From Planctomycetota bacterium (GTDB taxonomy: Bacteria > Planctomycetota > GCA-002687715 > DRQF01): a stretch of DNA of 19,346 bases. Position numbers and translations under genes: made by a program. Positions within the stretch are counted from its first letter, which is position 1. The number at the start of each line of letters is the position of its first letter. The notes beneath the pieces are model-generated. The model was not told the DNA's origin, did no database searches, and was given only the letters and a program-made list of their open reading frames with translations. Below, piece by piece: positions 2,147 to 19,321 of this stretch. The stretch lies in assembly GCA_027001995.1 (NCBI GenBank), contig JALTLO010000070.1, positions 1 to 19,346 of the forward strand, given 5' to 3'.

Positions 2147-3709
2147 CTACTCATCACTTTGGAGCCGGGGAAGGCCCATGGCGGCTAAGTAGTTTGCGAA
2201 TGCCACGAAACAAGAAGCATACGCTTCCGCTGTTGTGACTCTTGCTTTGGCGGTGGATTGTTCTCGCAGATTCACCCGCAATAAATCGCTTGCACCTTCC
2301 AAGAGTTTGTCTTGCTCAGCTCTTTCTAATGTTTGTGCTAGTTCCACTGACCGTTCGTAGAGCAAGAGATTCTCTCGTGCCCGGGAAAGTGCCGAGGCGG
2401 CGTCTCTGATTTCGGCTTCAATCTTGTCTGCGGTCAATCGCGCTTTTTGGGTGAGCTGGCTCATTTTGATCTGAGATTGTCGCAACTTCCCACGCGCAAC
2501 ACGTCGTGCCAGGGGCATCTCGAATTTGATGCCGATTCCGAATTCGAATGGGTCATCGCTTGAGTCAGCTGAAGTCGAACGGCCAATATCTTGGGACGCC
2601 GTGACAAAGGCGTCGAACTTAGGAAGCATGTCGTTATTTCGTTTGAATAAGTCCAGGTCTGCCGCTGCCAGATCGCAAAGAAAACCTCTCATTTCTGGGC
2701 GGTTCGCGATGCCGAAGGTCACATGGTTCTCCAAACTCTCGCTAAAAATGTCGGGTAGTTTCGGAAACCGGGGAATCCGATCGATAGTGAGCCGTACAGG
2801 GTTGCCTTCATTGTCGCGGTAATAGATCGATAGGCCAATTGTGGCCTTTTCGAACGTCCGCTTCGCCTGAATTAACTTGGCCTGCCTTGCAACGAAGAGT
2901 CTTTCGTTGTCGGTCAGATAAATCTCCGGCAGTTGCCCTTCCGCGACCAAGTCTCTTAAGGAAGTCCTGCGAGTTTCGGCCAACTCTAAGAGGTCTTGGG
3001 CAATCTTGATTTTTTGGGCGGCGGCCACACACTTCCAATACGATTCTGTTGCCTTGCGATAGAGGCGAACCCTCTCTTCACGAACGATTGGATCGGCCCG
3101 GTCCAATTCAATGCGTCGTTTCCACAGTTCCGCTCTTCGAGAGTCGATGGCGTTGCCCTTGAGCAATGGCACTTCGAAGCCGAAAAAGAATTCACCACCT
3201 GCATTTGTATCAATGTCGCCGTCATAGCTGCCGAAGTCACCTAAGGCATAGCGATACCCACTCTTGACTTTGGCACCCCATGTCTCAAGTGGTTGGGTGA
3301 TGTTGAAGTTGAGGTTGTTATTCTCGTAGTAACCCTCCACCTTATTCTTCGTTTCGAGGGTGACCAAGGTGTCGAAGCGGCCTTCCGCTGAAAGTAAGCG
3401 AGCCTCGGCTGCGGCAATCTCTAACTTGGCGGCGTGAAGCCCTGGGAACTGGTTTTCGACGGCATCAAGAACGTGTGCAAGATCGACATGTTTTTCCGCA
3501 GTTGCTTGCTTCACATTCTCGAGCGATTGGGGCAATGCTTCCGTACTCGGTTTGGTAGCCGATGTGGGTGCCGATGTCCGTCTTGGAACGGGTTTTCTCA
3601 GTTCGCTTGGCACCATCGGTCGACGTCGAACGATGGGTGGATCATAGGTCGCGCAACCCGTCAAGATGACGGCGGCGAACATGAATATGATGTTGCGCCG
3701 AAGTTTCAT
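2147..3709 (-). CDS. TolC-family outer membrane efflux protein, predicted lipoprotein
   Basis: ATG at 3709 overlaps the HlyD stop (ATGA) and gives MKLRRNIIFMFAAVILTGC, with a lipobox. A Pro/Thr-rich linker follows, then two OEP-like repeats (FEVPLLKG...RRAEL; FEMPLARRVARG...GASDLLRVNLREQ). Confidence 0.9.
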   Translation of the reverse strand: MKLRRNIIFMFAAVILTGCATYDPPIVRRRPMVPSELRKPVPRRTSAPTSATKPSTEALPQSLENVKQATAEKHVDLAHVLDAVENQFPGLHAAKLEIAAAEARLLSAEGRFDTLVTLETKNKVEGYYENNNLNFNITQPLETWGAKVKSGYRYALGDFGSYDGDIDTNAGGEFFFGFEVPLLKGNAIDSRRAELWKRRIELDRADPIVREERVRLYRKATESYWKCVAAAQKIKIAQDLLELAETRRTSLRDLVAEGQLPEIYLTDNERLFVARQAKLIQAKRTFEKATIGLSIYYRDNEGNPVRLTIDRIPRFPKLPDIFSESLENHVTFGIANRPEMRGFLCDLAAADLDLFKRNNDMLPKFDAFVTASQDIGRSTSADSSDDPFEFGIGIKFEMPLARRVARGKLRQSQIKMSQLTQKARLTADKIEAEIRDAASALSRARENLLLYERSVELAQTLERAEQDKLLEGASDLLRVNLREQSTAKARVTTAEAYASCFVAFANYLAAMGLPRLQSDE

Positions 3710-5028
3710 TTCTTGCTTCCGTTCTTTTTGTCTTGAGCTGCAGGAGGAGAGTCCAGGCTTGGCGGAAAGCCGTTGAGCTGCCGCCAAATCTCAAAGCCAA
3801 GTTTGACTTCGTCGAGCAGGACCCATCCTTTTACTTGCACACCTCGGCGTAGAAAACGACGCTCGGGCCAAGAATAGTCGTGAGCATCCGGTTGAACAAG
3901 AACGCGGAATTTTCCGTTGCCGTCGTCTTGAGAGTCGACCATGGTAACGATGCCACCAAAAGTTCCTTGGGCCACCGAGGGCCAGCCGACGAATTGAACT
4001 GCTGGCCACCCTTCGAATTGTAGGCGAACTGAACGGCCAGCGCTCACCAATGGGGCGTCGTTGCCTGCCAACCAGAGCTCAACGACCAAATCTTCGGAGT
4101 CTGGGACGAATTGGATGAGGCCGTCCCCTTTCTTGACGAGCTGTGAGTACGCTGCGCCATCGATACGAGAAATCACTCCATCACGGGGTGCCTTGATGCT
4201 CTGGGTTCCTTGCCGACCGAATTTTGTCATCGCATCCTGAACTTCTTTTTCAATGGATGCCACTTTCGCTACAGCTTCTTGGTATTTGCTGGATGCCTGT
4301 TCGAACTTGGCTTGTAGAGCGGCCCTCGTTTTCTCAACGGATGCCGCCTTTGCCGCTTGCTGATCTTTTGCCATTTGAAGTTTCGCTTCAGCACCCTCCA
4401 CCTTCGCGCTCGCAGAGTTGGCGGCGGCAACCGATTTTTGGGCGGACAGGACGGACGTCAATTTTTTGGCCAAGAGCCTACTTTGTCGATCTCCGTCCGC
4501 GACCTTCTGAAGTTGGTCTGCTTGAGCCGCCACAAGAACCTGTTCAGCGGTCAGAACTTTTTGCCGTGAAGCATTTAGTTCAAGCTGGGCCACCTGGACA
4601 GCGAGGTCGCGAGAGCCAGCCAAGCTTGCGACTTGATCCCGGAGGAGGGAGGCGCTGACCCGGGCGGCATCCAGTTTTTGGCGTGCCAATGCGACTTGTT
4701 GTTCAAGCCTCTGGGCGAATTTTGGGTCGAGATCTGATATCTCCATCAACAGTTGTCCGGCTTTCACGCGCTCACCTTCCCGGACCAGAAGACGGGATAT
4801 TTGTCCTGTTACTGGTGCTGGGATCATCTGGACACGGTCGATGGGGTTGAGAGCCATGATGCGACCGCGCCCGGCAATGTTCTGGCGCCATGGGGCGAAA
4901 AGCAAGATGATGGGCACGATGAGAACGATGAAAGCGACAATCTTGGCCGCTTTTCGAGTTGCTCGAGGAGGTTGTACAAGGTCATCCTCGTGGAGCTCAG
5001 GAGCTATTTTTGTAGCAATGGGGTTCAT
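3706..5028 (-). CDS. HlyD-family membrane fusion protein (periplasmic adaptor)
   Basis: N-terminal TM helix, lipoyl-like halves (IPAPVTGQISRLLVREGERVKAGQLL; IKAPRDGVI), a long coiled coil and a beta-barrel part with VRLQFEGWPAVQFVGWP. ATG at 5028 overlaps the ABC stop (ATGA) and has AGGAG upstream. Confidence 0.92.
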   Translation of the reverse strand: MNPIATKIAPELHEDDLVQPPRATRKAAKIVAFIVLIVPIILLFAPWRQNIAGRGRIMALNPIDRVQMIPAPVTGQISRLLVREGERVKAGQLLMEISDLDPKFAQRLEQQVALARQKLDAARVSASLLRDQVASLAGSRDLAVQVAQLELNASRQKVLTAEQVLVAAQADQLQKVADGDRQSRLLAKKLTSVLSAQKSVAAANSASAKVEGAEAKLQMAKDQQAAKAASVEKTRAALQAKFEQASSKYQEAVAKVASIEKEVQDAMTKFGRQGTQSIKAPRDGVISRIDGAAYSQLVKKGDGLIQFVPDSEDLVVELWLAGNDAPLVSAGRSVRLQFEGWPAVQFVGWPSVAQGTFGGIVTMVDSQDDGNGKFRVLVQPDAHDYSWPERRFLRRGVQVKGWVLLDEVKLGFEIWRQLNGFPPSLDSPPAAQDKKNGSKK

Positions 5029-6782
5029 TTCATTGTCTCCTGTGTCGCTGGTAGCGAAAGACGTGAGTCGCATTGGGCCGCCAGAGTCTTGGAGTTAGTC
5101 ACGATGATGAGGCTGCAGCGTTTCAGATTTGCTTCTAGGGTGTCCATGACTTCATCCCGCCCTTGAGGGGAGAGGTTATCCAGAAGGTGGTCAATCATGA
5201 GCAAACGAGGGCGGGAGAGAAGGACCCGCGCGATTGCGATTCGTCCAGCTTGTCCTGAGGACAAGGGGGCACCAGAGGGGAGCAATTTGGTTGCGAGTCC
5301 GTTCGGAAGTTCAAGGATTTGTTCCAGCAGTCCCACAGCCTTGAGAGTTTCATGGATCTCCTCAATAGGGATGTCGCTCCTGCCAAGAATAAGATTGTCG
5401 AGAATCGTAGCTTCCAACAGCCCTGGCTCTGAGGCCAAGGCGACTTCTTGACGAAATTTACCTAAGGGGATGTCTGCCAAATGGACGCCATCATAGATGA
5501 TACTTCCGGCCAATGGCTTGCGCAGGCCAAATATGGTTTCAAGCAGGAATGTCTTACCAACGCCATGGGGCCCCATGATCGCCAGGGATTTTCCAGGGGC
5601 AAGTTCGAAGGACACGGCTACGGGATCAACGAAGTGGGTCGGTTTGATAGGAACGGATCGTACTTTAAGCCCAGCAGCTACTTCTTTGGTCGCGATGGCT
5701 GGTCTATTGACTTCAGCCTCCATATCTAAGGTGGTGAGTTTTCCTACTTTGTCTACTGCGGCAATGAGATCGTACCACGTTTCAGCGAGCTTACCCATCT
5801 TGGCGACACTTTGTACGACTACAACAACGATGAGCTCGGCTGCAACCAGTTGGCCAATCGTCAATTCCCCAGAGACAACCAACCAACCACCAAGCCCTAA
5901 GACGGCGGTACTGGCAACAACCTGAACCCCGAGGGCTGCAACGATCTGGCCAAAGACGATTCGATAGTGGCGCTTGCGGAGGTCGATATAGTCGGAAGCA
6001 AGTTCCCTTGAGCGCAAGCGAACGAAGTTGGCGCTGCCAGGTGTTCGAAAGGCAAGAGGATGCCGCGCCAATTCTTCTAACCAAGCGGCGACTGCGTACT
6101 TGGCTTGGCTCTCTTTGATTGATGTTCGCATACCAGCCGCCAGTGGACCGAAGAAGACCGCTAATACCAAGAGAAGAAGGCCGATGTCCAAGAGTAAGAG
6201 AAGGGGGTGGTAAAGTGCGATCACAATGAACCCCACGACAATCGAAAGAACATTTCCTAAGCCAGCTAGGAGCAATTCTGAACTTCCTTTTTGGATCGTC
6301 ACGACGTCGAAGAAACGATTGACAAGTTCAGGGTTGTAGTAGCGATCCCGTACTTCCCAGCTCAAACGCCTGAGTCGCTCCGAGAGATCGGCGACCAAGC
6401 GTACGAAAATCCGTCGCTGGATAATCTCAACGATCCAAGTTTGAGTTGCCAAGACCGCTGCTCCCAGGACCAAACCTGAGAACAGTAAGCCTGAGAGGAT
6501 GATGATGGATGGGGCAGTTGCCCCGAAAGCAACGTTGTTCACCAGGGCCTGTACGGCCAAAGGTGTGGCCAGAAGTAGGGCGCCGTTGAGAATTGAAAAC
6601 ACAACGATTGAGCCTATATCGCCGCGGTCGGGCCTGAGGAGATGCCATAAGCGTCTAACAGGACTAATTTTCTGTTGTTTTTCTTCTTTTCGGGTCACGG
6701 CATTGTTGGCCTTATTCTCGGAGCCAGGATAACTTACTTTTGATTCATGATATAATTGTCCGGTATTTTTATCACCGTTCAT
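5025..6782 (-). CDS. Type I secretion-like ABC transporter (fused TMD + NBD, no C39 peptidase domain); start uncertain (ATG 6782 or GTG 6698)
   Basis: Multi-TM ABC membrane domain (ELVNRFFDVVTIQK; GELTIGQLVAAELI), Walker A GPHGVGKT, signature LSSGQ. Walker B is LLMIDH and the switch is IIVTNS, both non-canonical. Confidence 0.9.
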   Translation of the reverse strand: MNGDKNTGQLYHESKVSYPGSENKANNAVTRKEEKQQKISPVRRLWHLLRPDRGDIGSIVVFSILNGALLLATPLAVQALVNNVAFGATAPSIIILSGLLFSGLVLGAAVLATQTWIVEIIQRRIFVRLVADLSERLRRLSWEVRDRYYNPELVNRFFDVVTIQKGSSELLLAGLGNVLSIVVGFIVIALYHPLLLLLDIGLLLLVLAVFFGPLAAGMRTSIKESQAKYAVAAWLEELARHPLAFRTPGSANFVRLRSRELASDYIDLRKRHYRIVFGQIVAALGVQVVASTAVLGLGGWLVVSGELTIGQLVAAELIVVVVVQSVAKMGKLAETWYDLIAAVDKVGKLTTLDMEAEVNRPAIATKEVAAGLKVRSVPIKPTHFVDPVAVSFELAPGKSLAIMGPHGVGKTFLLETIFGLRKPLAGSIIYDGVHLADIPLGKFRQEVALASEPGLLEATILDNLILGRSDIPIEEIHETLKAVGLLEQILELPNGLATKLLPSGAPLSSGQAGRIAIARVLLSRPRLLMIDHLLDNLSPQGRDEVMDTLEANLKRCSLIIVTNSKTLAAQCDSRLSLPATQETMK

Positions 6783-6830
6783 TGCGCGACTCAATTAACT
6801 TGCTATATTTTTCATGAAATAAGTGTCATG
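6744..6830. promoter_or_regulatory. Divergent promoter region with two related operator-like boxes
   Basis: TTCATGATATAATTGTCCGG (6744-6763) and TTCATGAAATAAGTGTCATG (6811-6830) match at 16 of 20 positions. The second box contains the inverted repeat CATGA-N8-TCATG. A perfect extended -10, TGnTATAAT, lies at 6748-6756 on +, inside box 1. Confidence 0.6.
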
Positions 6831-6851
6831 TGAGTCTTGGAGGCATTTTTG

Positions 6852-7139
6852 ATGGAGAAACCCAGTGAATGGACGTTTCTTTCTAACTATGGCCATGTCT
6901 TGGTTGCCCTTGCCCGGGAGCCAGACGCCCGGCTCCGTGATATTGCGGAAGTGGTCGGAATAACGGAACGTGCCGTCCATCGTCTCTTGACGGAAATGGA
7001 AAGTGCTGGGGTGATTCACCGACATCGAGAAGGCCGTAGGAATCGATACACGATCGAAAGACAACGGCGGTTGCGCCACCCCTCAGAACGACACTGCACG
7101 GTGGGGGACCTCATCGACATGATTGTCGATGACCAGTGA
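6852..7139 (+). CDS. Small winged helix-turn-helix transcriptional regulator (MarR/ArsR-like, WTFLSNxxHVL family)
   Basis: WTFLSNYGHVLVAL...RLRDIAEVVGITERAVHRLLTEMESAGVI...GRRNRY gives an HTH plus wing. GGAGG at 6839-6843 lies 8 nt before ATG 6852. Confidence 0.9.
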   Translation: MEKPSEWTFLSNYGHVLVALAREPDARLRDIAEVVGITERAVHRLLTEMESAGVIHRHREGRRNRYTIERQRRLRHPSERHCTVGDLIDMIVDDQ

Positions 7140-7277: not shown

Positions 7278-7316
7278 AAAGAAAAACCCCATCTCAAGCA
7301 TAGCTTGAGATGGGGT
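7278..7316 (-). terminator. Rho-independent terminator of the subtilase / LTD-PKD unit
   Basis: Perfect 14-bp stem ACCCCATCTCAAGC (7286-7299) / GCTTGAGATGGGGT (7303-7316) with a 3-nt loop. On the minus strand it runs into a T-rich tract (complement of AAAGAAAA, 7278-7285). It starts ~23 nt after the stop at 7340. Confidence 0.88.
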
Positions 7317-7339
7317 CTTCGATTCGTCAACGGTTTTGT

Positions 7340-9130
7340 TTAAGGGACCGTAAATTCGAAAGCGGCGGTTAATTGAACGAAAGGGCTTCCCGGTTGATAA
7401 ATCAGAGCCTGGAGGGTCGTGATAATTCCCGGAGGTAAATTGTCAAAGTTGACACTGAGAGACCCGGCCCCGGAGCTATTGAGCGTGGCCAAGAAGTCAA
7501 AGAATGCCACTGGGTTGAGGCCGTCGATGACGGGGAAAATGTCACTGTAGTTACTTGTGGCTCCCATAGTGCCGATATCCAATGAGCCCTGAGGAACAAA
7601 AACCTGGTTATTGCGGTTCAAAGGACCAGCCAACAAAATCCAAGGATATCCCGGTGTACCGCCAAAGCTGATATCGAGCTGGGATGAATTGACGAAGAAT
7701 GGGCCATTCTCCCCAATGACTGCACTCTTTCCGTTGATGTTGACGCCACCTGCAATATCCATGAATGCCAATGGTTGGTTTGCTTGACCGATATCTGGGA
7801 CCGGTGGTAGCTCCACCCGTACGTCGTCGATGAGCAAGCCGTCTGAAGGCAGATCAAAATTGTCCTGTTGGCTAAAAATGAGTTCAAAAGTTGAGGTCAA
7901 GCTCATTCCATTTGCAGTCACGAAGGCACCCAAGTCAAATTCGATTTCCTGCCAAGCGCTGGTTAGCCCTTGATGGGAAACTGCGAGCAGCGTCTGAACA
8001 CCGTCTGAAACGAAAAGTCCGTCATTGGCGTCAGGCTCATCTCCGGATTCCCGAGCCAAGTACTTAACTATGACTTCCGTTTCTGCGCTCAGATCGATGA
8101 TGAGAGTTGCCTGATTCAGATAAACCGTCCCTGTGGCCGTCGCTTCAAAGATGAGAGCGTCACCACCTGATCCGGGTGAAGTAGACGGCGGGTTTCCCAC
8201 GTATATTTGACCGATGGTTGTTGATGAGAGAGACCATGCTGAGTTGAGACTTCCGTTGTTGAACTCGTCCAAGAATGGGATCGTTGGTGGCACGATGATC
8301 TGAATGAAGGAGTTCAGAATGCTGGTATCACTGCCGAAGCTGTTGGTTACCGTCAGGCGCACGGTGTAGAAGCCCGTTGCGCCATAGGCAAAGCTGGGGT
8401 TCTGGGAAGTGGAGTCCGTGATGTTGTCTCCATCAAAGTCCCAAGCCCAACTGGTTGGTTGCCCCAAGCTTTGGTCGACGAACTGAATCGGTGTTCCAAC
8501 GGTTGATGTGGTTGGGGTGGCTGCGAACGATGCTGTAGGTGGGGCTGGAACCCCGGATTGCCCAGCATTCAATGCACCGGGAGAGCCAGTGCCTGAAGGG
8601 GACATGACCCAGTCCGCGTCTGTATCGCTGTCGTTATTGCTGATCCTTTGGAATACGTCTTGGGTATTCGCACCACCTGAGGGCACTGAACCAGTAAAGG
8701 AAGATAGGGGTGAACCCGTAGGTAGATTGCTGGGATTACCGAACAAGATCAAGTCCTGCCCAACATCGTTGTTGTCGTTGAGGGCGCAGGCCCCGCCGGT
8801 ATTCACAACCCAAACAATGTTTGCAATGCTGAATCTTTGGGTACCGCCAGGCAACACAGGGAGTGAAGCATTCTCGGCAATGACAATCGTCTCATTGGGG
8901 GCAATGATCGTGGTTGCAGGAAATGTCACACTGACTTGCGCACTGGGATCGGTGGTCATGGTGACAGTCCATCCGCTGATGTCTACGGCCAAGGCTGACA
9001 GATTGGCGATTTCGACGTAATCATTGCCGTCGGTGACGACCTCATTGATGACAACACCTTGGCCGTTCAGTTGGTTTCCAAAGGTAAGAAGGGCAAAAAG
9101 GGTGAATGCAATTAAGTACTTCATATTCAT
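7340..9130 (-). CDS. Secreted protein: lamin-tail domain + PKD domain + probable jelly-roll domain + conserved C-terminal domain
   Basis: Signal peptide MNMKYLIAFTLFALLTFG...; LTD motifs VVINEV...DYVEIANLSALAVDISGWTV...SPGALN; PKD motifs PTASF...FVDQSLGQPTSWAWDFDGD...QNPSFAY...GFYTVRLTVTNSFGSD. AAGGAG lies 7 nt before ATG 9130. Confidence 0.85.
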   Translation of the reverse strand: MNMKYLIAFTLFALLTFGNQLNGQGVVINEVVTDGNDYVEIANLSALAVDISGWTVTMTTDPSAQVSVTFPATTIIAPNETIVIAENASLPVLPGGTQRFSIANIVWVVNTGGACALNDNNDVGQDLILFGNPSNLPTGSPLSSFTGSVPSGGANTQDVFQRISNNDSDTDADWVMSPSGTGSPGALNAGQSGVPAPPTASFAATPTTSTVGTPIQFVDQSLGQPTSWAWDFDGDNITDSTSQNPSFAYGATGFYTVRLTVTNSFGSDTSILNSFIQIIVPPTIPFLDEFNNGSLNSAWSLSSTTIGQIYVGNPPSTSPGSGGDALIFEATATGTVYLNQATLIIDLSAETEVIVKYLARESGDEPDANDGLFVSDGVQTLLAVSHQGLTSAWQEIEFDLGAFVTANGMSLTSTFELIFSQQDNFDLPSDGLLIDDVRVELPPVPDIGQANQPLAFMDIAGGVNINGKSAVIGENGPFFVNSSQLDISFGGTPGYPWILLAGPLNRNNQVFVPQGSLDIGTMGATSNYSDIFPVIDGLNPVAFFDFLATLNSSGAGSLSVNFDNLPPGIITTLQALIYQPGSPFVQLTAAFEFTVP

Positions 9131-9147
9131 GTCTTGGCTCCTTCAGC

Positions 9148-11727
9148 TTAATTGACTGTCACTTCCGTGGCGGCAGTGAGCCGGACGTTGTTGATGTTGT
9201 TGTCCCAGATGGCAGCTTGGAAAGCACCGATTGTTCCCAATACGAATGGCGGCAGAGAGAAACTCAGAACCTTGCGCCCTGTTGGGCCGGTGTTGGCACT
9301 GGCATCCAAAATTGAAACAGGACTCACGCCATCCAGCAGAATTTGTATATCGCTGTAGATTCCTGGCCCAACGAGTCCCACATCCAAAGTACCGACCGCG
9401 CCGAAGTTTTCATTGCCAACTCCAAGAGGACCCAAATAAAGTTGGAAGCTACGGTTGGCCGGGCCTTCGAAGATATAAGTGAGCTCGCTACCCGGGCTGA
9501 GGTTGGCGTAGAACGGACCAGCGACTCCAATCTTCGGTTTTTGGCCATTGAGATTGACTCCATCAACGATCTGGAGGGAACTTCCGATTCGGTTGGCTTG
9601 ACCCGAATCTGGAATCGGGCTTGGAGCTGGATCGACTCCTGAGACGACTAAGGAAAAGTCAGCATCAAGAGTGCCGGTTTCTACGTGACCGTCTTGATTG
9701 ATCTCACTGGCGATCACGTCGACGGTCCAAGTCCCAGGTATTGGATTCTGAAGGAGTACTTGTTCGACTGTGTCGACCGTGTTGGAGACACCGCCGCTGG
9801 TCGAGAAGTTGTTGGCCATGAGACCGTTATTGCCAAAATAGATCGTTCCCATGGGGTCTGTGACTCGGACTGATAGATCGTTAATTCTTGCGACTGAAGC
9901 TGCCGGATTGCCCGCAGGATCAGCGTAGATCATGGTGACCCGAAGTGAGGCAGTTCCGCTTGGAACGGTATAGGAATTCGAGCTTGTGGAAAGGGGAGTT
10001 AGGACGACATCTTGATCGATCCATTGGAGACGATCTTTACGATTATATAGGATGTCTAAGCTTGGACGCCCCCAACCTTGGTGAACACGAGTTAAGTCGT
10101 CACCCAAGCCGCTAAATGCGTATTGGGTGGCGGAATTGATTAACAGAGCTTTTGCAGTTGTTGCGTGGGGTTTGTTCGTGAAAACGTCCCAATTAACGAG
10201 AGAGTTGCCAAAGATCCCATCGGCCCACATTTGATGCAGGAGGCCAATGTGCCCCGCAGTGATCGGTGTGGCCCCACTTGTTCCTCCAAAATTGGAGTAG
10301 CCCCCACTGGAATTGGCAGCGAGAGTCAGATCATAGAATGCGGAAATGTCGGGCTTGATTCTTCCGTCATCTGCGGGGCCGATCGAGGCACCGCCGGACC
10401 AAGTATCATCCGTGATGGTCAGCGTATTCTGGTGACGAATACCACCTACAGAGAGAATGTTCTTGGCCCAAGCTTGGGGCCTTGAATCTTGGTCGCCAGC
10501 ATTGCTTTGAGATTGGAGAACAACAATGTCGTGATCGAACAGAATATTGTCCATGTCCGCAGATGTGGTGGTGTAGAAGAATGTCCGAGCGCCTCCCCAA
10601 CTATTCGTTTGAAAGACACACCGAAGAGGGTCCTGAAGCAATTGCCCCGTTTCCGCATAGCGATCAACAATAACCTGGTAGGAAGTGAAAACTGGCTGTG
10701 CGTCAGGGAGGAACCCTCGAGCTTGAGGGTTGTTCATGCCAGTGCCGAAGACAATGCCATAAACGGAAGTGCCATGGCCTGTGTTGGTGGAATTACCTAC
10801 GTGGATGATTGCTGGGGTGGCTTGGAAGTCAGGATGGCTTGTTTCTAGCCCACTATCTTGAACATGTCCCCGAACACCCTGCCCACTGTAGCCTTCAATG
10901 GCTTCGATCGTGTCCGCACCTCCAAAAGCTCTGGCAATATCGAGGTCGTCTTCGGGTGCACTCCAGGGATCGACGAAAAGCACTTCATTGCGGTTAAGGA
11001 CGGCTATGAGTTGGTCTGGAGACAAAGTCGCATCGATGAGGAATCCGTGTGGGCTCACATAGTCTGTAACTTCACCTGAGATTCGACCGATGAAATCCGC
11101 CAGAGTGTTCTTTTCTTCTAATCCTTTTCGGGTGACGTGAATATGGAAACGTTTCGTCCTGAGCTGTCCAGAAGCGAGGGCAGCTCGTGTTTTCACATCT
11201 GTACGATAGGCTGGCTCATAGGTGCCAACCCAGCGAACAAAATTGAGACCTTGGACGATGGGAATCAAAGCTGGGTTCATGCGCACCAGATTCGCCTGCC
11301 ACGGAAAGACCTGGAGAACTTCGATGCCGATTGATTTCAGTGTTTCACGGTAAGCTTGGAGACCTTGAGTCTTGTATTGTATGAGGAAGAGTTGGTTTCC
11401 GACTTGAGAGCGCAGTGCCAGAGGGACTTCGGGGATCTTGTCGAGAGGATCAAAGTCTTTGTAGTGGAGTTTGAGATCATTTCTTTGGCGGCGTGTTGTT
11501 AAGCAGTGCTCTCCGCCATCTCGGCTAATGGCATAGTAGGAGTCGCCGCCGAATTCGAAGAGGGCGAAGGCATCACCATCAGTTGAGGCCAATTGCCAGT
11601 CGAGTGTTCTTGTGTCCACCTCCACTTCAAGAATCCCTTGGGCTTCAAGTCCGCTGCTAAGGCAAACGAGAAGAGCAAAGGACAAAGCTGTGAAATGAAG
11701 GTGCCGAAGTTGGCTCCGCATTATCAT
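9148..11727 (-). CDS. Secreted S8 subtilisin-like serine protease (KP-43/TagA-like) with extra C-terminal domain
   Basis: Signal peptide ending LEA and a long prodomain. Catalytic triad motifs GHVQDSG, TGHGTSVYG and GGTSGATP, plus GPADDGRIKPDI. A KP-43-type beta-barrel domain follows (LRVTMIYADPAG...INDLSVRVTDP...NTVDTVEQV...GTWTVDV). Confidence 0.93.
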   Translation of the reverse strand: MIMRSQLRHLHFTALSFALLVCLSSGLEAQGILEVEVDTRTLDWQLASTDGDAFALFEFGGDSYYAISRDGGEHCLTTRRQRNDLKLHYKDFDPLDKIPEVPLALRSQVGNQLFLIQYKTQGLQAYRETLKSIGIEVLQVFPWQANLVRMNPALIPIVQGLNFVRWVGTYEPAYRTDVKTRAALASGQLRTKRFHIHVTRKGLEEKNTLADFIGRISGEVTDYVSPHGFLIDATLSPDQLIAVLNRNEVLFVDPWSAPEDDLDIARAFGGADTIEAIEGYSGQGVRGHVQDSGLETSHPDFQATPAIIHVGNSTNTGHGTSVYGIVFGTGMNNPQARGFLPDAQPVFTSYQVIVDRYAETGQLLQDPLRCVFQTNSWGGARTFFYTTTSADMDNILFDHDIVVLQSQSNAGDQDSRPQAWAKNILSVGGIRHQNTLTITDDTWSGGASIGPADDGRIKPDISAFYDLTLAANSSGGYSNFGGTSGATPITAGHIGLLHQMWADGIFGNSLVNWDVFTNKPHATTAKALLINSATQYAFSGLGDDLTRVHQGWGRPSLDILYNRKDRLQWIDQDVVLTPLSTSSNSYTVPSGTASLRVTMIYADPAGNPAASVARINDLSVRVTDPMGTIYFGNNGLMANNFSTSGGVSNTVDTVEQVLLQNPIPGTWTVDVIASEINQDGHVETGTLDADFSLVVSGVDPAPSPIPDSGQANRIGSSLQIVDGVNLNGQKPKIGVAGPFYANLSPGSELTYIFEGPANRSFQLYLGPLGVGNENFGAVGTLDVGLVGPGIYSDIQILLDGVSPVSILDASANTGPTGRKVLSFSLPPFVLGTIGAFQAAIWDNNINNVRLTAATEVTVN

Positions 11728-11847: not shown

Positions 11848-11892
11848 TTGTGATTACACAAGGATCATGAACTTGAATGACGATTCTTGCAA
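11848..11892 (-). promoter_or_regulatory. Candidate sigma70 promoter for the subtilase unit with adjacent inverted repeat
   Basis: On minus: TTGCAA (11892-11887), 17-nt spacer, CATGAT (11869-11864), followed by the inverted repeat TTGTG-N4-CACAA (11848-11861) over the expected +1. Confidence 0.35.
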
Positions 11893-12045
11893 GGCTTCTG
11901 CATTTTATCCCGAAGGAAAAGAAACATTCTGAGAGAAATGGAGGGTGGCTTTTGGCAGGACGCGGGACATTCAGGACAATCTGGCGAAAGATCTCTCGAA
12001 TACGTCGGAACCTCCTTCAACTTCAGGTGTTCGGTCACTTCCTGA

Positions 12046-13041
12046 TCATGATGGAGGTGAGTGGAAGGCTTTAATGAGCGTCTGGGCTCCCGTGGCTGGT
12101 GATATCGTTCCGTTTTGAACTTCTTCTTCAATGGCAGTGAGGGCAGCTTGGACGTGAGCATGAGCCTTGAAGTCTTCGAGCAATAGAGCTTTTAACTCCT
12201 GCCACAACCAACCCCGGAGTTGTTTCTTGCGCAAGGGAATCAGAGCTTTGTTGTTGCACAAATGACTGTGGTGCTTCTCGATTTCCTGCCAGACCTCGAC
12301 CAAGCCGGTTTTTTTGAGAGCACTGACCAGAAATGCCTGGGCGTGCCAGCCCTCGGTGTGGGGGCGCGTGTAGTGAAGAGCCGCCCCGTATTCGGACTGG
12401 GCTTCACGGGCCAAGGGCAAGTTTTTTCCATCGGCTTTGTTGACACAAACTAAGTCTGCCAACTCCAGGATCCCGCGCTTGATTCCTTGTAGTTCATCTC
12501 CTGCCCCAGGCAGCATGAGCACCAAGAAGAAGTCGACCATTTCAGCAACCATCGTTTCAGATTGGCCAACGCCGACGGTCTCAACCAGGACGACATCAAA
12601 GCCAAATGCTTCACATAGAAGCAAACTCTCGCGGGTTCGTGTCGCGATTCCTCCTAAGCTGCTGGCACTGGGCGATGGTCGAATGAAAGCGTTCGGGTGT
12701 TGAGCCAAGGCGTTCATCCGAGCTTTGTCGCCCAAGATGCTCCCACCAGAAATCGTGCTGGACGGATCGACGGCTAAGACCGCAATTGACTTGCCGCTTT
12801 CTGTCAACCAAAGCCCCAGGGCTTCAATGAACGTACTTTTTCCGACTCCAGGAACACCGCTGATGCCAATCCGTTTCGATTTGCCGGTCAGATGGGCAAT
12901 AGCGGTGAGCAACTCCTCTCGGCGCTGAATATCTTCAGGGCGAGAACTTTCCACCAAAGTAATAGCTCGGGCCAAAGTGCCCCGATCTCCGGCGGCAAAG
13001 CCCTGAATGATCTCACTCACAGTGAGGACCTGCCTTGCCAT
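12046..13041 (-). CDS. meaB: Methylmalonyl-CoA mutase-associated GTPase MeaB/ArgK
   Basis: LARAITLVES, Walker A GVPGVGKST, AVDPSS...GGSILGDK, VETVGVGQSE, GDELQGIKRG, NKAD. Start overlaps the mutB stop (TAATG). Confidence 0.97.
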   Translation of the reverse strand: MARQVLTVSEIIQGFAAGDRGTLARAITLVESSRPEDIQRREELLTAIAHLTGKSKRIGISGVPGVGKSTFIEALGLWLTESGKSIAVLAVDPSSTISGGSILGDKARMNALAQHPNAFIRPSPSASSLGGIATRTRESLLLCEAFGFDVVLVETVGVGQSETMVAEMVDFFLVLMLPGAGDELQGIKRGILELADLVCVNKADGKNLPLAREAQSEYGAALHYTRPHTEGWHAQAFLVSALKKTGLVEVWQEIEKHHSHLCNNKALIPLRKKQLRGWLWQELKALLLEDFKAHAHVQAALTAIEEEVQNGTISPATGAQTLIKAFHSPPS

Positions 13042-15203
13042 TAATTCTCGTCTCCGTTTGTTTTTAGGGATTTCTCCAGAACGTCCATCAACTGGTCAGC
13101 GGCTTGAGAAATAACTGTTCCGGGGCCGAAGACAGCCACGGCCCCGGCCTTGAGAAGACGAGGGTAGTCTTTTGGTGGGATAACACCGCCTACAACCACC
13201 AAAATGCCTGGCCGACCCAAGTCGTTCAAGGCCTCTCTGAGTGCTGGCACCAGGGTCATGTGTCCGGCAGCCAATGAACTCACCCCAACAATGTGAACAT
13301 CGTTCTCAACGGCTTGCTTAGCAGTTTCTTCAGGTGTCTGGAACAACGTGCCGATGTCCACATCAAAACCAATGTCGGCGAATGCTGTGGCAATGACCTT
13401 TTGGCCTCGGTCATGTCCGTCCTGTCCCATCTTGGCAATCAGGATGCGCGGTCGGCGACCGTCCAGCTCGATAAAGGCTTCGACTCGCTTTCTGACTGTT
13501 GTGATGTTTTCGTTCATGTCACCCACTTCAGCACTATACACTCCCGTGATTGATTTGATGGATGCAATGTGGCGTCCGAAGCTTGATTCTAAGGCTGAGG
13601 ATATCTCGCCCACGGTGGCCTTGGCGCGAGCAGCTTGAACGCTCAGGTCGAGGAGGTTGCCAGTTTTTTTGGCAGCGGCATCGCTCAGAGCCTTGAGAGC
13701 TTCTTGGGTTTGGCTCTCATCGCGTTCTGATTTGAGCTTGCCCAACCGCGTCAGTTGAGCCTTGCGGACTTTTTCATTGTCGACGGAAAGGACGTCTATC
13801 TCTTCCTCTTCTTCCAGGGGGAACTTGTTGATGCCGACGATTGTTTGCACACCCGAGTCGATCCTTGCTTGGGTCTTGGCAGCGGCTTCTTCAATGCGCA
13901 TTTTGGGAATGCCTGCTTCAATGGCGCGGACCATACCCCCCATGTCTTCTATTTCTGAAATATGTTGCCGAGCTTTGGCAGCCAAGTCGTGGGTTAGTTT
14001 CTCGACATAGTAGCTGCCACCCCAAGGGTCGACGACTTTGCAAGTACCAGATTCTTGACTCAATTGAATTTGCGTGTTGCGGGCAATGCGAGCTGAAAAA
14101 TCTGTAGGTAGAGCCAAGGCCTCATCCAGTGAGTTGGTGTGCAAGCTTTGGGTGTGCCCTTGGGTGGCGGCCATGGCCTCGATGCAAGTGCGAGGAACAT
14201 TGTTGAAGACATCTTGGGCCGTCAAAGACCAGCCGGAAGTCTGGCAGTGAGTTCTGAGCATGGATGATTTTGCGTTCTTCGGGTTGAATTGTTTCATGAG
14301 CTCGGCCCAGAGAAGCCGTGCTGCCCGTAATTTGGCGATCTCCATGAAGAAGTTCATGCCGGTAGCAAAGAAGAAACTCAATCTTGGGGCGAATGCGTCC
14401 ACGTCTAAGCCGGCCTCAATACCCGCCCGTACATAGGCAATACCGTCAGCAAGGGTGTAGGCCAACTCCAAGTCCGCCGTGGCACCGGCTTCCTGCATGT
14501 GATAACCAGAGATTGAGATGCTGTTAAATTTGGGCATCTTCTCTGAGGTGTAAGCAAAAATGTCGGAGATGATGCGCATGGATTCGGCCGGGGGATAAAT
14601 GTAGGTGTTGCGTACCATGAATTCTTTTAGAACATCGTTCTGTATGGTCCCGGCCAAGTCCTTCGGTGCCACGCCTTGCTCTTCTGCGGCGACAATATAG
14701 AGGGCCAAGATCGGGAGAACTGCGCCATTCATGGTCATGGAGACACTCATGCGGTCCAGGGGAATCCCGGCGAACAAGAGACGCATGTCTTCGATTGAAT
14801 CGATTGCCACACCAGCCATGCCAACGTCGCCAACGACACGGGGGTGGTCGGAATCATAGCCACGATGGGTAGCGAGGTCGAAAGCAATTGACAGTCCTCT
14901 TTGCCCCGCCGCAAGATTTCGACGGTAGAATGCATTGGACTCTTCCGCGGTGGAAAAGCCAGCGTATTGTCGAATTGTCCAGGGCCTTCGCACATACATA
15001 GTGCTGTATGGCCCCCGAACATAAGGGGGAAAGCCTGGCTTTGAGTCTAAATACTGAAGGCCCTCTAAGTCTTCTGGTCCATAGGCGCCGCGAAGGGAAA
15101 TTCCTTCTGGTGTGTTGTGTTTTACTTCGGTCGTGGCGGCGCTGGGTGGGGAGTCCTCTGGCTCTGGAAAGGCCACGGTCGAAAAATCTGGGATGCGGCT
15201 CAT
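13041..15203 (-). CDS. scpA: Methylmalonyl-CoA mutase, catalytic (large) subunit
   Basis: [13 protein letters not shown] (specificity Tyr), [31 protein letters not shown] and the B12-binding motif MGQDGHDRG...GVSSLAAGH. Equivalent to MutB. Confidence 0.97.
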
Positions 15204-17356
15204 GATTGGGTTGCCTCCATGTTGGAGTCACTCAGATAGAGGATGCCGCCGAGAATATGGATGGCGTCACATCCTTGGTAGATCGGCACGACGGTTGTTG
15301 GCATTTGGCAAGATAGCTTGTCAGTTCTACCAGCGATAAAGAGAGGGTGATTTTCTCCCAAGGCAGCGCTGAGCTTTTCTGCTAGTTCGCCAGCCTCGTT
15401 TTCATAGCCGCCGTTGCTGCCGCAGATGCAAACAGCATGGCAGGATGATTTCTTCCACGCCTCTTCATGGTCCTTCTCGCCGTCCTGAGCGATTTCCACT
15501 TCGATACCTCCGGCGGCGAAGAAGTTGGTGATAAAGGTAGAGCGGGGGCTGTATTCCCCTCGATTGCCAATGGTGGCCAGATAGATGCGAGGTCGCTTGT
15601 TCTTCGTGGCCAAGTGATCTGCGAATTCTCTTAGCTCCTCGAAGTCGCTGGCGTCCGATCGTCGGCGCAGAGGCTCCATGGCTTCGATTTCTCCACGGTT
15701 GACCATGCTCTGGGACATCTCGCCTATGGTAGAGCCGGCCATGGCTGCATGAATGGTCTCTGCCCAGTTCGTCAGATTCTTCAAACTGAGTGGGCCTCTG
15801 GTTTTCTTGTGGTTGGCCACAAACTCTTGAGATTTACTCAGGCTCTTGGTGAACTTGGCACCAAACTCCAGCTCTCGCTCTTCTTCCAAATTGGCGTATT
15901 CACTGACGCCGGTGATTGGGTCTTGCCGCCGTCGGGTGCGTCCTTGGCGGGCTCTCAGCCGTTCTGCTGCCATAGAATGAAGGGTTCCGTTGCGGAGGGC
16001 TGAGACCATGCCGCCTTCGGATTCAATGTCTTGCAGAACCTGCCAACAACGTTCACTGAGCTCGTCTGTCAGGGCCTCAACATAGTAGGAGCCTCCGGCT
16101 GGGTCGGCCACTTGCCCTAAGTGTGATTCTTCTCCAAGGATGATTTGTGTATTGCGAGCCACCCGTCTTCCCAAGGTGGAGGAGACGAAACCACTTCGTT
16201 CGAAAGAGTTTTGTTGGGGTGGAAGGTGATGGACGAAATCGCCCATGGTTGAGGGCCACCATGTTGGGCCCAGCATGAGATCATAGGGGGCGCTGGTAAT
16301 CTCGTCGGCCCCTGAGCAAATGGCCGCCATGGTTTGGGTGGTTGTCCTGAGCATGTTGATCCAAGGGTCGAAGCGCGTCAGGGTTCTTCTTGACGGCACA
16401 GCATGCAACTCTCCCGGAGTAGGGTGGTTGACGCCGCAACTTTCCAAGATGACATTCCAGAGAGAGCGAAGGGCTCTCACTTTGGCAATGCTTTGAAAAA
16501 TATCTCGCCCCATGGGGACCCGAAATGCAATTTGCTGGGCGGCACTCTCGACGTTCATACCAGCTTCTTCCATGGCCCGCAGGTAAGTCAGAGCTGTGGC
16601 CAAAGAGATAGCAATTTCTTGGGCACAACTGACTCCTGCTTCTTGCCAGGGCTCGGTGGAGACTTGGAATGTCTTCCCCGAAGGTAGTCGAGTTTCGACC
16701 TCCTTGGCCAAGTCGGCAGCTTCTCTGATGAGGTTGTTTAAACCTCCAGGAATCTCCCCGTCTCGAGCCAAGGATGCGATGGGATCGGCGTCAAAACGTA
16801 TCTTCGTTTTTCGGGTGTCGATTCCTCTCAGCTCTGCAATGGCCATAAAAAGAGCCGCCCCGCATAGGGCATTGGCACCCATGTCCAAATGCAGCTTTCC
16901 GTTCACTAAGTCGAGAGACCCGATGGCTTGATCAAGTTGGCTCAATTCGCAAATGGGGCAGCCTTCGACGCCGCTGTGTTCGATGGACTCGCTGTCATCG
17001 CTATCGAGGCCCAAGCGGGCCCCGCGATCGAAGACAAGCCAGGTCCCTGTGGCACCTCCGGCTTGGTCTTCTAAAATGGATGCTTCTAGATCATCCAAGT
17101 CGGCCAAGCTATGTCTTTGGGTGATTCCCCAGCTGACACCTGTTGCGCCACTTTCTTGATGACCTCGGCGATACGGAGATTGGCCGGGGCCGGGAGTCGG
17201 TTGAGGTGCATTTCTGTCCGCAGCATAGAGAGGCTCCGGTGAAAAACCCTCGATACTCTCTGGTTTGAGAACCCGGTCAAAATCACTCCCTTTCAATTCG
17301 GCTTCGACTTTCTTTCGCCAAGTCGCGGAATCGATGGGGGGGAAACCATCCGTCAT
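15200..17356 (-). CDS. mutA: Methylmalonyl-CoA mutase small (non-catalytic) subunit
   Basis: Mutase-like sequence ([25 protein letters not shown]...[23 protein letters not shown]) without the DxHxxG motif, and with MutA-type [20 protein letters not shown] upstream; ATGA overlap with mutB. Confidence 0.9.
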
Positions 17357-17395
17357 CTTTTTCTCCTGAAGCCGCTTTCGGACCAGCGGTCGGGC

Positions 17396-19321
17396 TTACA
17401 TGTTGCGGCGATATTGGCCACCAACGGCATAGAGTGCCCCTGATATCTGACCAAGGGTGCACACCTTGCACGCTTCCATCATTTCTTCGAAGACGTTGCC
17501 ATTCTGGATGGCTTTTTGGCGTAAGGCGTTCAGAGCAACAGTGGCAACTTCCTGGTTGCGCTCCTGAAATTTGATTCGGGCAGCGACGGCGTATTCTTTT
17601 TCAATATCCGTTGCTCGAATCACCTCTTCAGGAGTGATCGTCGGAGAACCTTGGCTATTGAGAAAAGTATTCACCCCAATGATCGGAAGGGTGCCATCGT
17701 GTTTCTGTGATTCGTAGAAGAGAGATTCTTCTTGAATCTTGCTCCTCTGGTACATGCGCTCCATGGCCCCCAAAACACCGCCTCGTTCGGATAAGCTGTG
17801 GAATTCATCTAAGACAGCTTTCTCGACCAATTCAGTGAGCTCTTCGATAATGAAGGAGCCTTGGGTGGGATTTTCGTTCTTCGCCAAACCTAGTTCTTTG
17901 TTGATGATGAGCTGAATCGCCATGGCCCGGCGAACGCTTTCTTCCGTTGGTGTGGTAATCGCCTCGTCGTAGGCGTTTGTGTGCAAAGAATTACAGTTGT
18001 CATTGAGAGCATAGAGAGCTTGCAGGGTGGTACGAATATCGTTGAAGTCGATCTCTTGAGCATGCAAGGAGCGACCGGATGTTTGAATGTGGTACTTCAA
18101 TTTTTGGGAACGTTCATTGCCACCATATTTGTACTTCATCGCTTTGGCCCAAATGAGGCGAGCGACCCGGCCAATGACGGAGTACTCAGCGTCCAGACCA
18201 TTGGAGAAGAAGAAACTTAAGTTGGCAGCGAAGTCGTCGATCTTCATTCCACGAGAAAGGTAGTATTCTACGAAAGTGAATCCGTTGGCCAGTGTGAAAG
18301 CTAACTGGGTGATTGGGTTCGAGCCGGCTTCTGCGATGTGGTAGCCAGAGATGGACACGGAATAGAAGTTTCTAATGCCATTGTCGATGAAGTACTCTTG
18401 AATGTCGCCCATCACCCGCAGAGCAAATTCCGTTGAGAAAATGCAGGTATTCTGGGCCTGATCTTCTTTGAGAATGTCAGCCTGGACTGTCCCTCGCACT
18501 TGCCGAATCGCGTCATGTTTGATCTTGGCATAGACATCTGGAGGGAGGACCTGATCTCCCGAGACACCCAGGAGCATCAGACCTAAGCCATCGTTTCCTG
18601 GTGGAAGATCACCTTGGTATTGGGGGCGGAGTTCACTTCTGCCTTCGTAGATGGCCGCGATCTTTTTTTCCACCTCTTCTTCCAGGCCATGTTCAACAAT
18701 GTACTTCTCACAGCACTGGTCGATGGCCGCATTCATGAAGAAGCCAAGGAGCATGGGAGCCGGACCATTGATGGTCATGGAGACTGAAGTCTTCGGGGAA
18801 GTGAGATCAAAACCGGAGTAGAGTTTCTTTGCATCGTCAACCGTGCAGATGGAAACACCAGAGTTGCCGACTTTGCCGTAGATGTCTGGTCTCGGATCAG
18901 GGTCTTCACCGTAGAGTGTGACCGAATCAAATGCCGTCGAAAGGCGTTTGGCTGGCATTCCAGCGGAAACGTAGTGGAAGCGTCGGTTTGTGCGTTCTGG
19001 TCCCCCTTCTCCGGCGAACATGCGAGCTGGGTCTTCTCCTTCGCGCTTCAGAGGAAAAACACCGGCGGCGAAAGGAAAGAAGCCTGGCACGTTTTCAGCA
19101 AGCTGCCAGCGGAGGATGTCGCCCCAATCTTTGTACTTGGGCAAGGAAATTTTGGGGATTTTTGATCCGGATAGGGAGGTGTGAAAGAGATCTTGTTTGA
19201 TCACCCGACCACGGACCTGAAATTCGTATTGATCAGCTCCGTAGCGTTTCACCAGATCTGGCCAATCACGCAGGAGTTTACGACTTTCTCCGTCAAGTGT
19301 TTCCTCTAAGTTGTTGTTAGG
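17396..19321 (-). pseudogene. icmF: C-terminal part (linker + mutase barrel) of fused isobutyryl-CoA mutase IcmF, apparently 5'-interrupted
   Basis: IcmF-type motifs [31 protein letters not shown] (Phe specificity residue), [38 protein letters not shown] and the terminal VGGQYRRNM. The frame is open up to 19321 ([27 protein letters not shown]) and closed upstream by an in-frame TGA at 19322-19324, so the B12-binding and GTPase domains are not in frame. The family call is strong; pseudogene status is less certain. Confidence 0.7.

Follow-up and report, generated by a model that had tools for sequence, protein, structure and literature searches.

The window analysed here is the whole 19,346-nucleotide stretch of contig JALTLO010000070.1, from a Planctomycetota genome of 5.2 Mb that is 92% complete (G000 below). 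Two adjoining genes on its minus strand encode a secreted subtilase and a secreted LTD-PKD protein, and both proteins end in the same domain of about 155 residues. The features concerned are the following.

9148..11727, minus strand: gene of the secreted subtilase, 859 residues (open reading frame and Pfam).
11641..11727, minus strand: predicted Sec signal peptide of the subtilase, residues 1-29, cut before Gln (read in the sequence, and heuristic).
7340..9130, minus strand: gene of the secreted LTD-PKD protein, 596 residues (open reading frame and Pfam).
9151..9624, minus strand: copy 1 of the shared domain, subtilase residues 702-859, predicted to be an all-beta immunoglobulin (Ig)-like sandwich (BLASTP, profile and model).
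7343..7807, minus strand: copy 2 of the shared domain, residues 442-596 of the LTD-PKD protein (BLASTP and profile).
9217..9219, minus strand: codon of the near-invariant Gln, Q837, in a late strand of copy 1 (alignment).
9175-9177, minus strand: codon of T851, the conserved Ser/Thr partner, copy 1 (alignment).
7409-7411, minus strand: codon of the invariant Gln, Q574, copy 2 (alignment).

The subtilase consists of a signal peptide, an N-terminal region, Peptidase_S8 (PF00082, residues 289-553, E 6e-14 in Pfam), a domain without Pfam match and the shared tail. In the LTD-PKD protein, the order is signal peptide (1-23), LTD (23-119), PKD (196-270), a domain of about 160 residues without Pfam match, and the tail. 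Sec-type signal peptides had been proposed for both proteins in a preliminary description of this DNA, and this was borne out by sequence reading, which places the predicted cleavage sites between LEA and QG and between LNG and QG, both passing our heuristic. With BLASTP, residues 443-595 of the LTD-PKD protein and 704-858 of the subtilase are identical at 63 of 159 positions, with 10 gap positions (E 6e-21), compared to a hand count of about 60 in 155 in the preliminary description, all of whose motif blocks lie in this alignment. The next-best high-scoring segment pair between the two proteins has an E of 0.94, and the remainder of the proteins is therefore unrelated. At the DNA level, the best similarity between the tails is only 28 bp at 79%, which argues against a recent duplication.

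No Pfam or NCBIfam family was found for the window tails (the best hit, E 0.17, is a chance match), nor for 22 further tails, and PDB sequences contained no relative (best E 0.026). The ESM Atlas returned solely unnamed Planctomycetota clusters of 117-139 residues, at 0.90-0.91. In the literature searched, as far as its text was available, the domain is described nowhere, and the available main text of the Saltatorellota preprint has no passage with the words 'C-terminal', 'secretion' or 'S-layer'.

A profile was iterated from the two window tails to convergence over the source genome. (Alignment A2 leaves out row L007, which contains X.) This long form of the domain was found on 34 proteins encoded on many contigs. 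It lies 0-1 residue from the stop in 31 of them (one a fragment), and is N-terminal or internal in the other 3. A local duplication confined to two adjacent genes, the outcome that would have spoken against the preliminary description, is rejected by this spread together with the low DNA similarity. When a 41-row alignment was searched against 1.84 billion representatives, 532 matches were obtained at E <= 0.001, and in 147 of the best 150 the domain was again 0-1 residue from the C-terminus. It is present in all 15 other genomes of the order. Outside the order, 14 of 285 genomes gave weak matches, confined mostly to the final 40-70 positions; these correspond to a form of about 120 residues, C-terminal on FG-GAP, GSDH, LTD and other proteins. 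We infer that the 155-residue form is an order-restricted elaboration of a wider family. Its passengers, expected to be varied, are modestly so: 24 of the 31 C-terminal carriers have in common a module of about 300 residues with a MAM-like domain at its end, and a single passenger cluster takes in 115 of 132 database matches. The subtilase and the LTD-PKD protein of the window stand outside this module group. Three long-form carriers lie in tandem at G000:C83:407-6169; when 3514 genes were ordered by a weak codon-bias score with ribosomal genes as reference, two of the three came 6th and 10th, a hint that they may be abundant proteins of the surface.

The variety of passengers becomes evident in the wider family. 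When the search was iterated with the final 48 residues against 3411 C-terminal segments of the source genome, 98 proteins were collected. Iteration on C-termini being circular, each tail cluster was also tested held out: the median of each of the 13 clusters was exceeded by only 1-13 of 3313 background C-termini. Taken together, three profiles assign the family to about 113 of the 4194 genes called mechanically, with a mean column identity of about 18% across the tail clusters. In 104 of the 113 carriers the domain is at the C-terminus or at most 10 residues from it (a count that includes 2 stand-alone proteins and 2 fragments); in 6 it follows directly after the signal peptide, and in 3 it is internal. 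The non-terminal copies, which also occur in G137, G144, G196 and G010, were first found by C-terminal seeds, before some of them entered alignment A3. N-terminal or early copies lie on secreted proteins at G000:C204:31921-34152, C60:16450-18807, C182:34587-36620, C176:3766-5775 and C43:16521-17540, the first two being assigned by motif only; several of these proteins run on into a similar-looking unannotated domain, and they are possibly structural proteins of the envelope. Two small proteins amount to little more than a signal peptide and the domain (G000:C22:79394-79909 and C22:38638-39231).

Signal peptides were judged by a lenient heuristic, independent of the tail profile, which was passed by 90 of 95 complete members and by 1407 of 3219 other genes. 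When a Gln at position +1 was required as well, the figures became 84 of 95 and 583 of 3219. The passengers form 18 clusters, and FG-GAP, beta-helix, CCP_MauG, M10, S8, GSDH and LamG domains were found among 20 scanned; MAM is a further passenger domain of the family. With the A3 profile, and up to 15 matches scored per genome, 55 of 301 Planctomycetota genomes had at least 5 matches, 4 had 1-2 and 242 had none; among the families listed, presence was all-or-none by family.

Relatives of the subtilase were examined for what occupies the position of the tail. At E <= 1e-60, 2297 of 8000 scored sequences are relatives of the subtilase core; close ones carry the label Planctomycetota, and the best 120 are 49-94% identical. 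Among these 120, the long form is the tail of 20 and the short form that of 11. In 22 relatives picked for tail scanning, some of them short-form members, GC-type dockerin (NF041540) ends 5 and the type A C-terminal domain (CTD) of the type IX secretion system (T9SS; TIGR04183) ends 1 (P0071), all over cut-offs. Two more relatives have PF00404 in precomputed annotation, and some others end in unnamed domains or are fragments. Eleven relatives (P0022, P0029, P0033, P0045, P0056, P0069, P0070, P0088, P0100, P0115 and P0122) end in another tail, most often finishing in a DQVRW-like motif; two are labelled Fimbriimonadaceae or Armatimonadota. No NCBIfam match was found for this tail in three scanned, and it is perhaps a further unnamed lineage tag.

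AlphaFold2 models the subtilase tail as all-beta, with a predicted local distance difference score (pLDDT) of 93.6 and a predicted template modelling score (pTM) of 0.88, and gives the stand-alone protein at C22:79394-79909 an all-beta Ig-like core (pLDDT 86.9). The two models have like folds and identical top structural neighbours. Against Ig and macroglobulin domains, the long-form model reaches Z 7.2-7.5 over 90-102 residues with a root-mean-square deviation (rmsd) of 2.7-3.6, and the stand-alone model Z 8.2-8.8 over 85-100 residues, rmsd 2.5-3.1; with Foldseek, the subtilase tail finds antibody V domains at E about 1e-4. The tail is thus predicted to be an Ig-like sandwich, in which the last strand, proposed in the preliminary description as a terminal amphipathic beta-strand, would be an ordinary strand rather than a free tail; that earlier reading is weakened by the models. 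Compared to the Ig and macroglobulin structures, 55-65 residues of the long form are unaligned insertions. The structures matched (CHIR-AB1 2vsd, LILRB4 6k7o, TEP1r 2pn5 and A2M 7s62) share 10-22% identity and represent a common fold that shows no function. Structures of T9SS CTDs and cohesins did not appear among the matches listed in four fold searches, though they may yet resemble it.

Just two side chains are nearly invariant in the wide family, a Gln and a Ser/Thr that follows it at a distance of about 14 residues; no His is conserved. The Gln is found in 98 of 98 and the Ser/Thr in 96 of 98 members of a set selected on that region, and in 149 of 150 and 141 of 149 database matches selected on the whole domain. 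The tails are hydrophobic, Pro/Gly-rich and low in charge. Over the last 120 residues, the grand average of hydropathy (GRAVY) is 0.45, compared to 0.06 for the passengers; it is above the mean of the tail's own passenger in 92 of 96 proteins and above every passenger window in 63 of 96. Nine positions outside the predicted strands are occupied by large hydrophobic residues in at least 70% of cases.

By its position and carriers, the family resembles three known systems. Like the T9SS type A CTD of Bacteroidota (TIGR04183/PF18962), it combines a Sec signal, a varied passenger and a terminal Ig-like beta-sandwich whose last two strands are the most conserved, it has about a hundred carriers per genome, and the CTD occupies the same slot on P0071. 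The CTD measures about 70 residues, whereas the present family has 120-160 with hydrophobic insertions, and occurs also N-terminally, internally and alone. TIGR04183/PF18962 matched neither the window tails nor the 22 further tails, although the same model recognises P0071; in G000 its best E is 0.11, below the cut-off and at other loci. Dockerins (type I, PF00404, and GC-type, NF041540) are likewise small terminal modules on many unrelated exported proteins of Planctomycetota, and take the same slot on the subtilase relatives, but they are calcium-binding loop-helix repeats, unlike a predicted all-beta sandwich, and gave no match on the tails. The PEP-CTERM/exosortase tag is also a lineage-specific C-terminal mark of exported proteins; here, by contrast, the domain is folded, 120-160 residues long, and ends in a beta-strand with no basic cluster and no transmembrane helix. 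As the preliminary description had held, the tail belongs by sequence to none of the three, and the family is best read as one that acts like these tags yet fails membership of each.

The corresponding machinery was searched for as well. PorV (NF033709) was not found in G000, with the control recognised, and was over cut-off in 0 of 40 domain-rich genomes, 6 of which had weak partial matches. For SprA, TIGR04189 had no match in G000 and PF14349 none in 5 genomes, no control being over cut-off; UPF0164 and SprA_N were not found either, again with no control over cut-off. Neither dockerin nor exosortase (PF09721) was detected in G000, where the controls were recognised. G000 does encode a glutaminyl cyclase, as well as six secretins that pass the cut-off, several of them within type II/pilus-like gene clusters. 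Among 22 barrel-like candidates scanned, 18 match TonB receptors, porins and other barrel families (Pfam, E <= 0.01); 4 have no Pfam match, and the one profiled is a lipoprotein. Barrel-like outer-membrane candidates without Pfam match lie at G000:C88:1783-3369, C44:21341-22822 and C43:37978-39444.

The profiled lipoprotein has 859 residues and a Gly-rich linker. Its gene is at G000:C204:49829-52408 (L095; relatives L115-L120 and L141-L160), with pilC/pilT-like and prepilin peptidase genes as neighbours. The C-terminal 270 residues or so of the protein define a multi-copy family, without Pfam match in 7 members, that is present in 93 of the 301 Planctomycetota genomes: 51 of the 55 domain-rich ones and 42 of the 246 others. 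The distribution is nested, not specific, and since the lipoprotein family is wider than the tail domain it is a lead only; shared ancestry alone could be the source of the co-distribution.

The surroundings of the gene pair in the window include two further features.

9138..9144, minus strand: Shine-Dalgarno-like GAAGGAG, 7 nt ahead of the LTD-PKD gene start, inside the 17-nt intergenic gap (read in the sequence).
7282..7320, minus strand: 18-bp hairpin just 3' of the LTD-PKD gene (folding, -33.6 kcal/mol, z -7.5, 0 of 200 shuffles).

Because of the GAAGGAG motif in the short gap and the hairpin after the second stop, the subtilase and LTD-PKD genes likely form one operon, as judged from the DNA. 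The hairpin, which is not among the pattern-scan results, is likely the terminator that parts the pair from a downstream operon at 2147-6794 (minus strand) for TolC-like, HlyD-like and ABC transporter proteins. A divergent MarR-type regulator lies at 6837-7139 (plus strand). Type I secretion through this operon was considered and rejected, given the Sec signals and the hairpin and opposite-strand regulator that lie between; its genes were not seen next to the pair in 13 other loci examined. Upstream of the subtilase, genes at 11865-19252 (minus strand) read by eye as a MeaB-like GTPase and methylmalonyl-CoA mutase subunits. The two window genes adjoin, in either order, in G001, G002, G006, G007, G012, G014 and L011, an adjacency kept across two families, and in the 13 other loci no neighbour apart from the pair itself is common to different families. 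The pair looks old, and the expansion of the long form younger.

What the domain does can be approached from its distribution. We favour, with an even chance of being right, a self-contained Ig-like domain acting as an uncleaved, non-covalent anchor at a common site of the envelope. Carriers would be exported by Sec and cleaved before Gln, would cross the outer membrane through one of the secretin channels of the genome, and would dock by the hydrophobic insertions and the Gln-Ser/Thr face onto either membrane lipid or a shared protein of the envelope. The domain would then stand in for the dockerin-type or T9SS tails found elsewhere on related proteins, and the long form may already have been on the subtilase-plus-partner pair before it multiplied in this family. 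Several points weigh against an anchor. Binding of the tail to the envelope is in its entirety something we infer, as are the partner and the location, and the C-terminal placement of about 92% of copies is equally expected of an export signal. The window tails themselves are mildly hydrophobic (GRAVY 0.18 and 0.29, compared to 0.36 for the LTD of the same protein). Other relatives of the subtilase carry FN3, LTD, Ig or FG-GAP domains in this slot, which shows that an occupant need not be a tag. Dockerin is matched in 15 of 40 domain-rich genomes and in 17 of 40 domain-free ones; the two sets differ only in expansions (12 or more), which 4 of 40 domain-free and 0 of 40 domain-rich genomes show, and kin do not count as independent cases. 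The main competing explanation, which we regard as possible though rather doubtful, is that the domain is an outer-membrane export signal comparable to the T9SS CTD, one that an undescribed translocon or a specialised secretin system would recognise and that might be cut off after export. The available part of one source (PMC4804311) describes the T9SS CTD as Ig-like and most strongly conserved in the last two strands, with the signal within the last 22 residues, and the same conservation is seen here; the Sec signal with Gln at +1 together with a glutaminyl cyclase, the all-or-none distribution by family and the CTD in the slot of P0071 point the same way. Nine N-terminal or internal copies, of which other genomes have examples too, and two stand-alone ones argue against a signal that needs a free C-terminus, and make an uncleaved anchor more likely. 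Also unfavourable to an export signal are the lack of PorV over cut-off in G000 and the 40 domain-rich genomes, the 18 barrel-like candidates that match known families, and the finding that, of 5 carriers, just 1 has a glutaminyl cyclase above the cut-off. The preliminary description had proposed a lineage-specific export or surface-attachment domain: lineage restriction and C-terminal placement on signal-peptide proteins agree with it, and the non-terminal and stand-alone copies fit attachment better than export.

There are three other explanations. The domain might associate with itself, its carriers together building a coat or lattice of protein on which varied head domains are displayed. 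Stand-alone and N-terminal copies, the hydrophobic, Pro/Gly-rich composition, the codon bias of the two tandem carriers and the conserved adjacency of the window genes are compatible with this, which we nevertheless judge unlikely: 13 tail clusters of such low mutual identity would need one common lattice, no single dominant structural gene was found and the codon signal is small. It seems equally improbable that we are dealing with an ordinary accessory Ig-like domain, used for capping or ligand binding and spread by paralogous expansion with no targeting role. The generic fold (best Z 7.5 and 8.8 for the two models) and the predominance of one group of paralogues among long-form carriers and database matches would suit it, but the domain is nearly always present once per protein and at a terminus, on 18 passenger clusters, with none of the tandem repetition of spacer Ig domains and with sharply bimodal genome counts. 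A covalent link made or accepted by the Gln and Ser/Thr (an intramolecular ester, or an amide to an envelope amine) appears very improbable. These are the only near-invariant side chains, and Foldseek ranks Thr-Gln ester-bond Ig repeats such as Cpe0147 highest for the stand-alone model, but at E of at least 1e-3, a TM score of about 0.4 and rmsd about 8, and such repeats are absent from the 50 best VIA rows. According to the part available of the study concerned (10.1101/2025.03.26.645365), Cpe0147 needs a His/Asp base and buried acids, with Thr and Gln 130 residues apart, unlike the spacing of about 14 and the missing conserved His found here.

Going beyond the anchor itself, it is conceivable, though we would expect it to be wrong rather than right, that deep-branching Planctomycetota have an undescribed system for surface display with this domain as its address tag, by which 2-3% of the proteome would be exported by Sec, cross the outer membrane without T9SS parts and dock on a dedicated partner, for which the C204 lipoprotein family is a candidate. 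The architecture of signal peptide, passenger and terminal tag is already well known. With the domain as a marker, the exported proteome of lineages that are largely uncultured can be recognised by sequence, and the question arises how a hundred different enzymes and adhesin-like proteins are retained on the surface of diderm bacteria in which no T9SS or exosortase parts were found. If the domain is indeed a portable anchor, it would constitute a new surface-display module.

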